Numbered from the stretch's first letter, positions 18,580-29,455 are shown. The stretch: 64,000 nt of DNA from an uncultured delta proteobacterium (GCA_963699755.1 CAVOVB010000001.1:64001-128000), one strand, 5' to 3'. Notes: a model not told the origin generated them from the sequence alone. A program made the numbers and translations.

Positions 18580-19515
18580 ATGCCCGATGAACCAAACAAG
18601 CTGGAGCAGAAGCTGCCACGGCCTGTAGTGAAAGCGCTCCAGCGTTTCATGGAGCGCGGCTTGTTGAACAAGTGGGCGGAAGCGACCGAAGCGCAACTGA
18701 GAGAACCCGCGCAGCAATTCGATCCCGAGTTCATGCGCAAGCTCGTTCCGAGAATGGAAACCTTCACGAGCTACTTCGGCGCGGAAGTCCGCGGAATGGA
18801 TCGCGTGCCGACGAGCCCTGTGCTGCTGATCGGAAACCACTCGGGCGGCATCATGACACCGGACACGAGCGCCCTGTACGCAGCCTGGTATCGCACGCGC
18901 GGTTTCGAAGACCCTCTAATGGGCCTCGCGTTCGACGCCATCTACGCCGTCCCAGGTTGGCGCGAGCTGATGCGCAAGATCGGCCAGATGCCCGCGAACA
19001 TGGACAACGCGGCGGCCGCCCTGGGAGACGGCTGCTCGGTGCTGCTCTATCCCGGCGGCGCCTACGAAGTCTTCCGGCCCTGGAAAGACCGCAACCGCAT
19101 CACGTTCAAGGGCCGCAAAGGCTTCATCCGGCTGGCACTCCAAGCCGGCGTCCCCGTGGTTCCTGTGGTCGGTCATGGCGGCCACGAAACGACCATCGTC
19201 CTGACGCGCGGCGAGCGCTTGGCCAAGCTTTTGGGCCTCGACAAGGTGCGCATGGACGGCGCGCCTTTGCTTCTTCAGCTGCCCTGGGGGATTTCGAGCC
19301 CGGCCACCCCGGGCGTGCCGCTCCCAGCGAAGATCACCGTGCAGGTCTGCGAGCCACTCGACTGGAGCCGCTTCGGTCCCGAAAGTGCCGACGACCCGGA
19401 TGTGCTCGAGCGCTGTTACGACGAAGTCACTTCCATCATGCAGGTCACCCTCGACCAGCTCGCCATCGAGAACCCGCGACCGCTCCTCAGCCGCTTCGTT
19501 CGGCGCAAAGGCTAG
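18580..19515 (+). CDS. Lysophospholipid/DGAT2-like acyltransferase
   Basis: GNHSGG...D, YPGG, RKGFIRLAL..GVPVVPV. Confidence 0.92.
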   Translation: MPDEPNKLEQKLPRPVVKALQRFMERGLLNKWAEATEAQLREPAQQFDPEFMRKLVPRMETFTSYFGAEVRGMDRVPTSPVLLIGNHSGGIMTPDTSALYAAWYRTRGFEDPLMGLAFDAIYAVPGWRELMRKIGQMPANMDNAAAALGDGCSVLLYPGGAYEVFRPWKDRNRITFKGRKGFIRLALQAGVPVVPVVGHGGHETTIVLTRGERLAKLLGLDKVRMDGAPLLLQLPWGISSPATPGVPLPAKITVQVCEPLDWSRFGPESADDPDVLERCYDEVTSIMQVTLDQLAIENPRPLLSRFVRRKG

Positions 19516-19528
19516 AAGCACGAACGCG

Positions 19529-20893
19529 ATGTTCCCCGGCGTACCGACGATTTCCTGGGCCTTCTTGGCCGTCAGTCTGCTGGGCGCCTCCTTCACCGCG
19601 AACGCCTTTGTCCCGGTGCGCCGCGTGCCCGCGCTCTTCATGCCGAGCTTCTTTGGTTCCTGGTTGACGGCCGAGCTCGCGATTCATCATGTTTTTTGGC
19701 AATCGATCGCATCGCTAGTCTTCGTGGAGCTCGGCGCGCTTGCCGCCTGGCCGGGCTGGGCGGGGCTGGTCGTCACCCTCGGCTCATGGCTCGGTCTCTT
19801 GATCCTCTTCGCAGATGGCCATCGGGCACGGAAGACCTTCGATCGGGCTCTACGAGGCCTAACGGCGGTACGCGACACCAAGCCGGTCCCACGCCGAAAC
19901 GTCGTCTTGCCATTCTCCAAGAAGCGCCGAGGAATCCGAGTGACCCGCGATATCCCCTACCGGCGCGTCGCCGGCACAGTCTTGAAGCTCGACGTCGTGG
20001 CCCCCGCTGTGGCCCACGCCGTGGCCCCCGCCGAACCTGGGACGGATCCGGCCCCCGCCGAACCTGGGACGAATGGGGCCGGGACGAATCCGGCCAGGGG
20101 GGCGAAACGGCCGGCGATCATGCAAATTCACGGCGGCTCCTGGGTGATGGGTGACAAGCGCGAGCAAGGCTGGCCGCTCTTGTCGCACCTCGCAGCCAAT
20201 GGCTGGGTCTGCTTCAACCTCAACTACCGCCTGAGCCCGGGCGCCACCTTCCCCGACCATCTGATCGATCTCAAGGCAGGCCTGGCCTGGATTCGCGAGC
20301 ACGCCGAAGAGTGGGGCATCGACCCCGACTTCGTCGCTGTGACGGGCGGCTCCGCGGGCGGGCACCTCGCGGCCCTGATGGGTCTCACCGCGAACGATCC
20401 AGAATACCAGCCCGGCTTCGAGCAGGCCGACACCAGCGTGCAAGCCGCAGTACCGATCTATGGCGTCTACGACTTCACGAGCCGCCTCGGCACCAACCGG
20501 CTCCCATTTTGGTACCGACGGCTCGAACGCCAGATCATGAAAGCGTTCCGAGACGAAGAGCCGGGAAAGTTCCGTCGCGCCTCTCCCATCGAGCGCATCC
20601 ACCCAGACGCCCCCCCCTTCTTCGTGATTCACGGCGACCGCGACACCCTTGCGCCGGTCGAAGAGGCCCGCTATTTCGCCGCCAAGCTCGGCAAGGTCTC
20701 GAAATCTAGGGTCTTCTATGCCGAGCTTGGCGGCGCACAGCACGCGTTCGACCTCTTCTGCTCACCGAGAACATCACACATGCTCGTCGCGGTCTTGAAG
20801 TTCCTGGACGCCACACGTTCGAGTGCGCGCGCCGAGGCCGCGAAGCCACTACTCGATGACAGAGTCACTCACCTGGGGGTCGCCGTTCGCTAG
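19529..20893 (+). CDS. Membrane-anchored HSL-family esterase (mycobacterial LipM/LipO/LipQ-like) with repeat insertion
   Basis: N-terminal TMs; HGGSW, NYRLSP, GGSAGG, HGDRD, QHAFD. Confidence 0.9.
   Translation: MFPGVPTISWAFLAVSLLGASFTANAFVPVRRVPALFMPSFFGSWLTAELAIHHVFWQSIASLVFVELGALAAWPGWAGLVVTLGSWLGLLILFADGHRARKTFDRALRGLTAVRDTKPVPRRNVVLPFSKKRRGIRVTRDIPYRRVAGTVLKLDVVAPAVAHAVAPAEPGTDPAPAEPGTNGAGTNPARGAKRPAIMQIHGGSWVMGDKREQGWPLLSHLAANGWVCFNLNYRLSPGATFPDHLIDLKAGLAWIREHAEEWGIDPDFVAVTGGSAGGHLAALMGLTANDPEYQPGFEQADTSVQAAVPIYGVYDFTSRLGTNRLPFWYRRLERQIMKAFRDEEPGKFRRASPIERIHPDAPPFFVIHGDRDTLAPVEEARYFAAKLGKVSKSRVFYAELGGAQHAFDLFCSPRTSHMLVAVLKFLDATRSSARAEAAKPLLDDRVTHLGVAVR
19997..20098 (+). repeat. In-frame repeat insertion: 3x12-bp tandem followed by REP-like AACCTGGGACG units
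   Basis: GTGGCCCCCGCT / GTGGCCCACGCC / GTGGCCCCCGCC (19997-20032); GGCCCCCGCCGAACCTGGGACG at 20023-20044 and 20050-20071. Confidence 0.85.
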
Positions 20894-27015: not shown

Positions 27016-27603
27016 GTGGCGCGATCAGGAGACAGGGGTGGCAAAGGCGGAGGTAGAAATGGCCACGCCAGCGGGCGCTCGAAGGCAGATCGGGAAGCCC
27101 TCGAACGAGCCTTGTCCGATGTGAAGCCCTTGAACCCTGGTTCGAAGAAGAGGGTGACGCCTGCTCTGGCAAGCGGCTCCGCGTCGTTGCCCTGGTCTTC
27201 GGGGTCGGCAATGCAACCGGCCCCGCCGCTGATTCTCGAACGCGAAGCCAACGGCATCGTCCTCGGCAAGCGTCGCGCGACTCACTCGAGCATCCTCGAA
27301 GCTCTCGAACACCCGAAGCTCGAGGTTCAAGCACAATGCGATCTGCACGGGCAAACCGCACGCGAAGCCGAGCGCGAAGTGCTCCGCTTCGTTCGGGAAT
27401 GCCAACGGAAGGGTCAGCGTTGGGTCCTGATCATCGTCGGCAAGGGTCTCCACAGCCCTGGCGGACAGGCCACGCTCAAGTCCAGTGTGGCCGACGCCCT
27501 CAGTAAACGAGCCCCTTCCCGCTTCGTCCTCGCCTTCCGAACGGCCCCACGCCACCTTGGCGGCACCGGCGCCTTGGTCGCCCGCCTAGTCGACCGACTC
27601 TAA
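27016..27603 (+). CDS. Smr/MutS2-domain protein (SmrA-like)
   Basis: DVKPL, CDLHG, IIVGKG, GGTGAL; GTG 27016 chosen, start uncertain. Confidence 0.88.
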   Translation: MARSGDRGGKGGGRNGHASGRSKADREALERALSDVKPLNPGSKKRVTPALASGSASLPWSSGSAMQPAPPLILEREANGIVLGKRRATHSSILEALEHPKLEVQAQCDLHGQTAREAEREVLRFVRECQRKGQRWVLIIVGKGLHSPGGQATLKSSVADALSKRAPSRFVLAFRTAPRHLGGTGALVARLVDRL

Positions 27604-27625
27604 CCAAAGCGGAGCCCAAGCTCTT

Positions 27626-27644
27626 TCCCACGTTCGAATTCGAA
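27626..27644 (-). repeat. REP-like motif copy upstream of RAYT
   Basis: Minus strand TTCGAATTCG-AACGTGGGA; inverted relative to AACGTGGGA at 28855-28863. Confidence 0.5.
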
Positions 27645-27676
27645 GGACAGCGCGGATTGGCGACCGATACCCGGGT

Positions 27677-28564
27677 ATGACTCTACCACGACGCGTCCTT
27701 CCTGATAGAACCTATCTCGTCACCCGCCGCTGCATCGGCCGCCGCTTCTTGCTGCGCCCCGACGGCGCCCTCAACAACCTGTTTGTTTATTGCCTAGGCA
27801 GAGCCGCAAAGAAATACGGCGTGCAGCTCCATGCCCTGAGCGTCATGAGCAATCACTACCACCTGGTACTGACCGACGTCGAGGGGGTGCTCCCCGACTT
27901 CATGGCTTGGCTCAACCGACAGCTAGCGAAGTGCATCAAGCGTCTTCGGGACTGGGATGAAGTAGTCTGGGAGCCAAACGTGCCGTACAGCGCCGTCGAG
28001 CTTAGCGGCCCGACCGAAGTGCTCGACAAAGTCGCGTACGTGCTCCTCAATCCGGTCAGCGCAGGCCTGGTGCACTCGCCCGAGCGATGGCCTGGGGCGT
28101 TGAGCACCCTTGGAACGCTCCGCGCGGGCGTCATGAGCGCTAAACATCCGCGCCTCTGGTTCAAGAACAGCGCACCTAGCAAGGTGAAGCTTGCACTCAC
28201 CGCGCCGCCGTGCTTTTCGGATCGAATCGCCTACCTCGAAGCGCTCAAGGCGCTTCTGACAACCCGCGTGTCGATGCTGCGTTCCGAGCTTCGCCATCAC
28301 GGTCACGGCTTTCTTGGACGCACCCGTGTCCAGAAGACACTCGTCACAGACCGACCGCAGACGAGGAGTCCGCGCTTCGGACTCAACCCTACTTTTTCGG
28401 CGCTCACTCGCGCAGCGTGGCTTGCCGCAGCCCAACAGCTCCGCGCATTCCGTCTCGCCTATCGAGAAGCCTACCGAGCGTGGCGAAGCGGCGTGCGTGA
28501 TGTCGCCTTCCCCGCCGGCACTTGGTGGGTCGTACGCTGCGCCGGTGCGGCAACGGCGACCTAG
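27677..28564 (+). mobile_element. REP-associated tyrosine transposase (RAYT, Y1 HUH; IS200/IS605 TnpA superfamily), no TnpB adjacent
   Basis: YLVTRRC, VMSNHYHLV (HUH), YVLLNPVSAGLV...WP. Confidence 0.9.
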
Positions 28565-28788
28565 CGAGCACCGCGGGGCAGCTTCGAAAGGCTCGACTGG
28601 GGTTGTCCAGGACCCGAACGGCTGCGAGCGCCCCGAAACGCAGATGCTCGCAAGACCCATGCCTTGGCCCCCTTCCGTGGGTGACGCAGACTAGAAGAAG
28701 CCTAGTCTGTCCATCACACCTCTCTCCCAAGAAGGCGGTGGGGAGATCCTCTGCTACCCGTCAACTACAAGTCAATGCAGAACGGTTG

Positions 28789-28857
28789 CTTAACTATTCT
28801 TAACTATTCTTAACTATTCCTAAACTGTTCTTAAACCATTCTTAACCATTCTTAAAC
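28789..28857 (+). repeat. AT-rich 10-11 bp tandem array (about 6.5 copies)
   Basis: CTTAACTATT x3, CCTAAACTGTT, CTTAAACCATT, CTTAACCATT, CTTAAAC. Confidence 0.95.
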
Positions 28858-28987
28858 GTGGGACGGTTACCTAGACTTCAACATGGGGCAGTTCCCTCGG
28901 GATGGTTGCTGGTTGCTTGCCCTGGAGTGGGAAGTCGTCCCTGGGAAGTCGTCCCAGGAAGTCGTCCCTGGGAAGTCGTCCCAGGTT
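28855..28987. repeat. REPIN/BIME-like unit: inverted pair of REP-like motifs with internal hairpin repeats
   Basis: AACGTGGGACG (+, 28855-28865) and AACCTGGGACG (-, 28977-28987); GGAAGTCGTCCC x4 (28930-28982); hairpins CCTGGGA-AGTCG-TCCCAGG at 28940-28958 and 28967-28985. Confidence 0.75.
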
Positions 28988-29017
28988 GAGAATGCGGAGA
29001 ATGCGGAGGAGAATGTG
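28988..29017 (+). repeat. 9-bp tandem repeat abutting the right REP-like motif
   Basis: GAGAATGCG GAGAATGCG gag GAGAATGTG. Confidence 0.85.
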
Positions 29018-29056
29018 GCCTGGCCAGCTGCCTCGTCGACGCCTCATGAACCAATT

Positions 29057-29455
29057 CTATCGCCGCTCTGCATTCGCCGCGCTGACCTGCTCGTTGAGCG
29101 TCCAGTAGTCGTAAAGGATGCCGAGGCCAGCGAGCCCCACGGTGAGGAAGTAGATCAGGCCGGTCAGGTACTTGCCCATGTAAATTCGGTGGATTCCGAA
29201 GATGCCGACAAAGGTGAGCAGGATCCACGCCACGTTGTGGTCGACCGGGCCCGATTCATATCGAAGCTCCGCCGAACGATCGAGCGAGGGCATCAAGAAC
29301 AAGTCGACGAGCCAACCGATGCCCAGCAGCCCCAACGTCAAGAACCAAATCGTCCCGCTCACCGGGCGCCCATAGTAAAAACGGTGTGCCCCCATGAACC
29401 CAAAGATCCATAGCAAATAGCCGATGCCGAGATTGTGCGTATCACCCTGCGCCAT
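29057..29455 (-). CDS. TM2-domain (NINE) membrane protein, two TM2 units
   Basis: GFMGAHRFYYG and GIFGIHRIYMG. Confidence 0.92.
   Translation of the reverse strand: MAQGDTHNLGIGYLLWIFGFMGAHRFYYGRPVSGTIWFLTLGLLGIGWLVDLFLMPSLDRSAELRYESGPVDHNVAWILLTFVGIFGIHRIYMGKYLTGLIYFLTVGLAGLGILYDYWTLNEQVSAANAERR

Follow-up and report, generated by a model that had tools for sequence, protein, structure and literature searches.

The window analysed here, a 64,000-nucleotide (nt) stretch of DNA from an uncultured delta proteobacterium (GCA_963699755.1 CAVOVB010000001.1:64001-128000), carries an insertion of roughly 1.4 kb (approximately 27621 to 29018) between two convergent genes that encode an Smr-domain and a TM2-domain protein. 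We assign it to the TIRtrons, elements in which terminal inverted repeats (TIRs) bracket the gene for a TIR-associated tyrosine transposase (TIRYT). At the ends of this element and of its relatives, short tandem duplications were found that tend to begin or end at two points of the repeat core, and these points probably mark the sites at which the transposase cuts. The element has the following parts, with coordinates counted from the first letter of the window:

27621..27646, minus strand: left TIR, with its core CCCACGTT at 27627-34, exactly 50 nt before the ATG
27677..28564, plus strand: transposase gene, encoding a 295-residue HUH/Y1 tyrosine transposase of the RAYT/TIRYT type (RAYT, tyrosine transposase associated with REPs, the repetitive extragenic palindromes)
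28565..28788, plus strand: 3' spacer inside the element, poorly conserved, with a weak consensus over 48 aligned loci
28850..28869, plus strand: right TIR, with its core AACGTGGG at 28855-62
28875..28895, plus strand: degenerate second copy of the right TIR, AACATGGGGC at 28880-89
28971..28994, minus strand: extra TIR copy in the opposite orientation, with its core at 28979-87

The transposase gene and its terminal inverted repeats

The translated open reading frame (ORF) contains the HUH motif NHYH (residues 59-62) and the motif YVLLNP (residues 121-126). A catalytic domain (residues about 1-140) is followed by a conserved, uncharacterised C-terminal domain (residues about 150-295) ending in FPxGTWW. 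Among 25 aligned family members, which are 35-84% identical to the window protein, H60, H62, Y121, N125 and P126 are invariant, as is the C-terminal block F278-P279-x-G281-T282-W283-W284; the middle residue of the HUH motif varies (Y, H, S or A). Matches to the known profiles remained under their cut-offs (Pfam Y1_Tnp, E 7e-4, 20.1 bits, cut-off 23 bits; NCBIfam REP_Tyr_transpos, 49 bits, cut-off 80). An AlphaFold2 model (pLDDT 85, pTM 0.86) had E. coli TnpAREP (4er8_A) as its top Foldseek match in the PDB (E 1e-6, TM 0.73 on the target), followed by the ISDra2 and IS608 TnpA structures (2xqc, 2vjv and others; Foldseek range E 1e-6 to 1e-4), and a profile search of PDB sequences reached 4er8 at E 0.022 with the Y..NPV..G.V...WP block aligned. 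For the C-terminal domain, no PDB fold match from Foldseek covered residues about 150-295, no Pfam family was found for residues 151-295 at E up to 10, and a protein atlas returned no informative family (top score 0.87). The HUH motif, the single catalytic tyrosine and the modelled Y1 fold are features of the HUH/Y1 superfamily, and the Y...NP signature after the catalytic tyrosine is that of class 2 (RAYT/TnpAREP). An earlier note on this DNA had proposed a stand-alone Y1 HUH transposase without TnpB; conserved motifs, fold match and neighbouring genes, with no adjacent tnpB, support the assignment to a stand-alone RAYT-like Y1 HUH protein.

The same note had listed a motif, AAC[CG]TGGGA, around the gene. 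All of the listed copies are present: AACGTGGGA at 27626-34 (minus strand) and 28855-63 (plus strand), AACCTGGGA at 28979-87 (minus strand), 20034-42 and 20061-69 (both plus strand), and the degenerate copy at 28880-89. A further match, absent from that list, lies within an ORF at 18950-58 (minus strand), with no repeat nearby. The 64-kb window thus holds six matches, two of which are parts of one 27-nt tandem duplication, against 0.68 expected, and none of 100 shuffled sequences reached six.

Comparison of related loci indicates that AAC[CG]TGGGA is the core of a TIR of roughly 16 nt that frames the gene family. From inside to outside the TIR consensus reads TTCGAAC-S-TGGGAAGGTT (58 + 50 + 87 distinct copies); its outer half has the consensus TGGGAAGG and reads TGGGACGG in the window. 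Both in relatives from the genus and in 79 same-clade metagenome loci, ACCTTCCCA[CG]GTTCGA recurred as the top inverted match between upstream and downstream flanks. Of 68 distinct upstream flanks, 54 contain the 8-nt core in the orientation expected for the element, as do 46 of 61 distinct downstream ones; the opposite orientation was seen in only one and two flanks, respectively. The distance from the innermost upstream copy to the ATG is exactly 50 nt in 44 of the 68 upstream flanks, and the first downstream copy lies at a median of +204 after the stop. In the window, the right TIR and the opposite copy face each other within 28855-28987, about 115 nt apart, with their outer halves inward. 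The opposite copy is missing from the orthologous loci (L039, L040, L045 and G032). An alignment of 48 loci contained no conserved element in the 3' spacer, and an Rfam scan of 27400-29200 returned just a chance-level snoRNA match (E 0.76).

The element is an insertion, and the repeat-to-repeat unit is mobile as a block. In 10 genomes of the genus the Smr and TM2 genes are just 4-44 nt apart with no element between them, and the element occupies this spacer in the present genome (G000), in G032 and in the metagenome loci L039, L040 and L045. Two other loci, L102 and L104, share a TIR-to-TIR stretch of 1160 nt at 98.3% identity in otherwise unrelated flanks, with the homology starting at the left TIR (-54) and stopping at the right TIR (+213). 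Their four flanks show neither a target duplication nor a CTAG target. Nor did either appear when empty and filled Smr-TM2 spacers were compared, although these are too short and variable for the junctions to be placed. The Smr-TM2 spacer of another genome (G001; L135, G001:C47) holds an unrelated insert of 1 kb, and the spacer seems to attract insertions.

By tblastn, the protein has 14 matches in its own genome, of which about eight are full length (33-66% identity), the nearest paralogue being 66% identical; most of them have inverted, often tandemly repeated, motif-like copies on both sides. For the assembly, a completeness of 100% and a contamination of 9% are given, so a few of these paralogues could belong to another organism in the bin. 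The family was found in 17 of 18 other genomes searched in the genus and at no fewer than 346 loci in Myxococcota species genomes, whose hosts include Sorangium, Minicystis, Nannocystaceae, Sandaracinaceae and Anaeromyxobacteraceae. By these homology searches, this genome holds several diverged copies of the family, which is widespread in Myxococcota. Decaying copies were also observed: one (L006, G000:C1:282730-283608) has an in-frame TAG, and another paralogue (G000:C3:110298-112967) is broken into three pieces with stops, still adjoined by TIR copies.

The earlier note had taken the motif for a REP family without the GTAG tag, spread by the RAYT, in which a nick 5' of the motif and its repair duplicate only the adjacent 6-12 bp of local sequence. 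Like REPs around RAYTs, copies of the motif do stand in inverted orientation on either side of the gene; one class of duplications, 8-12 nt long, ends exactly before AAC; and there are a few orphan copies, one of them within an esterase-like gene. However, the motif is not enriched in the 5.35-Mb genome. Its two forms occur in 41 + 27 = 68 copies, against a Markov expectation of 35 + 19, and rank at the 61st and 41st percentile, respectively, of 9-mers of the same GC content. The extended motif, allowing up to one mismatch, has 11 matches (0-11 in shuffled controls), seven of them at transposase genes. Gene-less copies in this genome number no more than a handful. Furthermore, 3'-side and whole-site duplications outnumber 5'-side ones, and neither GTAG-tagged hairpins nor a high-copy dispersed family, the strict marks of a REP/RAYT system, were found. 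We therefore regard the REP explanation as very unlikely.

For a second clade of the family in this genome (clade 2), the motif GATCCGACCSASGTTG with up to two mismatches had 64 matches against 6-44 in shuffled controls, a weak excess that includes a handful of solo intergenic copies. Solo left-end TIRs of this kind lie at G000:C1:445376, C3:473857, C5:76344, C2:322255 and C1:1562369; one solo copy is situated just past a tRNA-like 3' end, and several have small tandem duplications of their own. A twice-repeated orphan at G000:C5:278557-278649 looks as if the two outer halves of a clade-2 repeat had been fused, CCCAGGTT and then GGGAGATC, as would be expected of an excision joint or of a mini-element with no interior.

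Tandem arrays and their turnover

Tandem arrays adjoin the TIR copies at the right end of the element and at an orphan site elsewhere in the window (TRF, Tandem Repeats Finder):

28789..28855, plus strand: array of about 6.5 copies of the 10-11-nt unit CTTAACTATT (TRF), ending at the core AAC
28928..28985, minus strand: array of 4 copies of the 13-14-nt unit TGGGAAGTCGTCCC (TRF, x4 at 28928-28982), on the 3' side
28988..29018, minus strand: about three 9-nt units in tandem, GAGAATGCG as read on the plus strand (TRF, x2.3 at 28988-29008)
19996..20095, plus strand: orphan cluster of TIR copies inside the esterase-like ORF 19385..20893 (HGG motif)

The unit of the first array is the inner (5') part of the right TIR, that of the second, on the minus strand, is the outer (3') half of the motif (TGGGACGACTTCCC), and the third lies, on the minus strand, directly 5' of the core at 28979-87. 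A tandem repeat of local sequence, with a unit differing by site, had been reported directly 5' of the motif at four sites. Three of these repeats were confirmed by TRF (28789-28855, 28988-29008 and 19996-20033). At the fourth site, (TTCGAA)2 at 27635-46 forms a palindrome of 12 nt (TTCGAATTCGAA) that is conserved in orthologues as the inner part of the left TIR, and hence is not a local amplification. The units are also less distinct than had been thought, since the CATTCTTAAC-like unit and the CGCATTCTC unit on the opposite strand both copy the 5' extension of the motif. Nor are the repeats purely 5' of the motif: arrays on the 3' side lie at 28928-28985, 20023-20074 and 20066-20095. Under a strict definition of adjacency, 5' and 3' arrays were found at two and one of the 68 genome matches, respectively, too few to judge a bias.

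Arrays are concentrated at the motif and at the transposase genes. Eight of the 68 genome matches overlap a TRF array, compared with 0.5% for 60 letter-shuffled control motifs, and 16 of the 621 array clusters in the genome lie within 1 kb of the 13 transposase-gene places. Of 38 loci from this genome and from its relatives, 27 have flanking arrays, and arrays make up 9.8% of flank bases versus 1.16% elsewhere in the loci; for loci from Myxococcota species genomes, 54 of 70 have arrays and the corresponding values are 11.9% and 3.35%. Finished genomes of cultured strains, Sorangium cellulosum So ceGT47 (L210) and Sorangium sp. So ce1128 (L220), contain six to eight full TIR copies per end, and the arrays are thus not an artefact of metagenome assembly.

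The orphan cluster consists of three arrays: CGTGGCCCCCGC at 19996-20033 (x3.2), a unit of 27 nt at 20023-20074 (x1.9) and one of 15 nt at 20066-20095 (x2). The cluster is an in-frame insertion of 84 nt in the esterase-like ORF, in which the motif occurs twice, the native 12 nt on its 5' side three times and the 15-nt outer half twice. Exactly these 84 nt are missing from five orthologues in the genus. The insertion is lineage-specific and lengthens the protein by about 28 residues immediately ahead of the HGG block. All three periods, 12, 27 and 15, preserve the reading frame.

The arrays differ in copy number and unit arrangement between near-identical strains. Between the syntenic loci L039 and L040 (62 mismatches over 3296 aligned bases), two whole-site units of 21 and 23 nt are added in L040 without microhomology; the only other indel is one of 44 nt about 820 nt past the stop. 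Half-site or whole-site indels at the TIRs were likewise seen in the syntenic pairs L082/L083, L011/L061, L099/L101 and L068/L114 and in L074/L116, and the orthologous locus of G032 shows a third repeat arrangement. In contigs from sequencing run X3, representing a 98.9%-identical strain (9 differences in 809 gene bases), each of the arrays departs from its counterpart in the window: +11 nt at 27611, -32 nt in the 28789..28855 array, -41 nt in the 28928..28985 array, +27 nt (a duplication) and +9 nt (one unit) at 28976-28987, and -3 nt at 29005. In run X2, the 28789..28855 array is one 10-nt unit shorter. Two RNA runs, X13 and X16, contain small portions of the 64-kb stretch. Across loci, extra TIR copies always lie outside the fixed inner copy.

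This turnover bears on the idea that the arrays are selected, iteron-like binding arrays which regulate the gene or load several enzyme molecules. The inner left copy at the fixed position of -50 from the ATG could be an operator, and the six to eight full sites in Sorangium would suit such a role. Copy number and unit length nevertheless change between near-identical strains, 31 of the 68 upstream flanks carry a single copy, and neither half-sites nor copies of flanking DNA alone would bind, which leaves selected binding arrays as an extremely improbable account.

Duplication boundaries and the origin of the arrays

For the analysis of boundaries, 75 distinct perfect tandem duplications were collected from the vicinity of 222 cores, which lie in 153 distinct flanks. 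Eighteen of them begin at core positions +4..+7 (T|G|G|G), an excess over a uniform spread (binomial p 8e-7), and seven finish exactly before AAC at position 0 (p 4e-5), with 11 finishing at 0..+3 (p 1e-3). No duplication finishes between +5 and +20, and about 10 whole-site units begin at -2..+2 (p 0.07). The picture drawn in the earlier note, with local sequence duplicated next to the motif on its 5' side, accordingly holds for a real, recurrent class of 8-12-nt copies that end exactly before AAC (7/75). It is a minority class, outnumbered by duplications running 3' from T|GGG (18/75), and many units hold the whole motif. Of 73 events, 40 have junctions without any ambiguity (0 nt) and a further 16 have junctions ambiguous by 1 nt, which is the chance level and makes slippage driven by microhomology unlikely for the first duplication.

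The two boundary points, directly 5' of AAC and at T|GGG, probably mark cut sites of the enzyme. We infer from these natural scars that the enzyme nicks, and that extension and resealing follow at the boundaries. It would nick each strand of its own site, at |AAC and at T|GGG; a polymerase would extend the free 3' end by some 10-40 nt; and the enzyme would then reseal the covalently held 5' end onto the extended strand. Such an abortive start of rolling-circle replication would leave a tandem copy beginning at the nick, and once two copies are present, gain and loss by whole units would be easy. A TIRtron whose enzyme nicks its own site, extends and reseals, leaving tandem copies behind, is the explanation we favour, and we hold it to be moderately probable. 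What remains of the motif-directed repeat generator first proposed is a duplication process tied to the motif, recurrent at many independent loci and variable between strains; the REP family and the 5' bias do not remain. A broader version, in which the TIRYT enzyme is a natural site-specific writer of tandem repeats that would nick both strands of its 16-nt site at set points flanking the pentanucleotide AACST, place microhomology-free copies of 10-40 nt on either side by abortive extension and resealing and, at orphan sites, lengthen proteins in frame, as in the 84-nt loop of the esterase, is put forward tentatively, as less likely than not.

Several points weigh against nicking and resealing by the element's own enzyme. 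The exact core is missing from 14 of the 68 upstream and 15 of the 61 downstream flanks, and at least some of the relatives concerned (L102, L104, L100, L093 and L094) bear a CCCAGGG variant as their end sequence instead. The boundaries are spread across about 4-5 nt, and a good number of whole-site duplications begin elsewhere, from -34 to +28; the two boundary classes together require nicks on both strands in differing sequence contexts; and because the loci are related to one another, the p-values given above overstate their independence. The comparison with runs X2 and X3 uses k-mer contigs, which are liable to mis-assemble tandem repeats, and is supportive rather than decisive. Finally, an AACCT/AGGTT stem in the site has no covariation: S varies, and its would-be partner stays G in 93% of the copies. 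The usual hairpin substrate of Y1 enzymes is thus not evident. A hairpin AACCT-GGGA-AGGTT could form in most copies and had been considered as the substrate, and it was dropped since the variable S lacks a compensating change in its partner.

Two other origins of the arrays have to be weighed against nicking and resealing. Excised single units or gene-less mini-elements might insert repeatedly beside resident ends, with the end sequence as the preferred target, much as IS200/IS605 elements go in beside a fixed short sequence. The 21- and 23-nt whole-site units added in L040 without microhomology would fit, as would the orphan site in a gene where five orthologues have none, the position of extra copies outside the fixed inner copy, and the reported occurrence of TIRs in dimers and clusters in the part of the TIRtron account available to us (PMC3733652). 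The far-side ends of the units are variable, however, with no conserved sequence, and neither half-site units nor units of native flank only, of which the esterase gene has an example in its three 12-nt copies, are inserted sites. We consider repeated unit insertion rather unlikely. Alternatively, slippage, template switching or unequal exchange during replication could have left the arrays as by-products at a tightly protein-bound or structure-prone site, with no cutting by the enzyme. Slippage or unequal exchange does alter copy number once two copies exist, which fits a nested ABBABB arrangement in L007, and the outer half of the site contains no end of a repeat tract, which is what the footprint of a protein would give. 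Yet the first duplications lack the microhomology that slippage needs, and one boundary (T|GGG) lies inside the conserved site rather than at its edge, so that we rate an origin from replication alone as distinctly unlikely.

Relation to known transposase systems

The catalytic domain shares the fold of E. coli TnpAREP (4ER8), and in both systems the gene is framed by inverted copies of a cognate site. REPs are GTAG-tagged hairpins present in hundreds of copies. Unlike in the E. coli system of REPs and bacterial interspersed mosaic elements (REP-BIME), no hairpin is supported for the site described here, and the site is virtually restricted to the ends of its own gene. The TnpA proteins of the IS200/IS605 family (IS608, ISDra2) likewise have the HUH/Y1 fold, and the absence of a target duplication in the one recently moved pair, L102/L104, is a further likeness. 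Members of IS200/IS605 have subterminal hairpins, no inverted ends, a Y...Q motif, near-identical multiple copies and often tnpB, whereas the family in the window has Y...NP, inverted ends, no adjacent tnpB and a nearest paralogue only 66% identical.

In the literature searched, the names TIRYT and TIRtron turned up solely in two papers (PMC3733652 and PMC6006769) and a preprint of the latter, and no biochemical test of these elements, named in 2013, was among the results. Among the papers listed by a search pairing RAYT with myxobacteria none uses the RAYT name, and a search on tandem duplication and HUH nicking had nothing describing such end duplication among its top matches. In the available text of Bertels et al. 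2017 (10.1101/119735), the word tandem is not used. In the present family, a conserved 16-nt site, a clearly mobile unit and natural scars together point to two candidate cleavage positions. They address the open question of how a tyrosine transposase of the single-strand type handles inverted ends of the double-strand type. If the writer reading holds, the duplication scars would amount to a cleavage map, read from sequence, for a class of enzymes with no assay known from these searches; and nicking, extension and resealing, if true, would be a new route by which the enzyme of a mobile element creates hypervariable tandem repeats, occasionally in genes.

Quentin, Siguier, Chandler and Fichant (2018) equate TIRYT mostly with subclass 2.1 of TnpAY1 (PMC6006769). 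As far as the accessible parts of that classification go, the window protein resembles subclasses 2.1 and 2.3 in its Y...NP signature, its HuH motif of the NH[YF]H type (NHYH here), its W motif WE, its long C-terminal extension and the lack of REP hairpins, and, as in subclass 2.3, there are several diverged copies per genome. It differs in length (295 residues, compared with medians of 238 in subclass 2.1 and 325 in subclass 2.3); the C-terminal helix-turn-helix of subclass 2.1 (Bac_DnaA_C, HTH_23 or HTH_28) was not detected here, and the model has no counterpart of the 55-residue insertion between strand 3 and helix C in subclass 2.3 (PMC6006769). Subclass 2.3 is reported there from Chromatiales and Alteromonadales, whereas the present family resides in Myxococcota (PMC6006769).

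The closest known kind is the TIRtron with its TIRYT, the TIR-associated tyrosine transposases of Di Nocera, De Gregorio and Rocco (2013), according to the portion of that paper at hand (PMC3733652). The C-terminal domain without a Pfam match and the host phylum, Myxococcota, set the window family apart. Most TIRYT repeats, although not all, are reported there to carry GGGGWSAS, which the outer half of the consensus TTCGAAC-S-TGGGAAGGTT resembles without fitting (PMC3733652). Tandem duplication at a hot spot with fixed boundaries inside the repeat is not described for TIRtrons in the same portion (PMC3733652). The likenesses lie in the architecture: a RAYT-like Y1 gene bracketed, at fairly fixed distances (-50 and about +200 here), by TIRs that are unrelated to GTAG REPs; few to moderate numbers of extra TIR copies, some in dimers or clusters; and several diverged genes per genome, each with its own repeats (PMC3733652).

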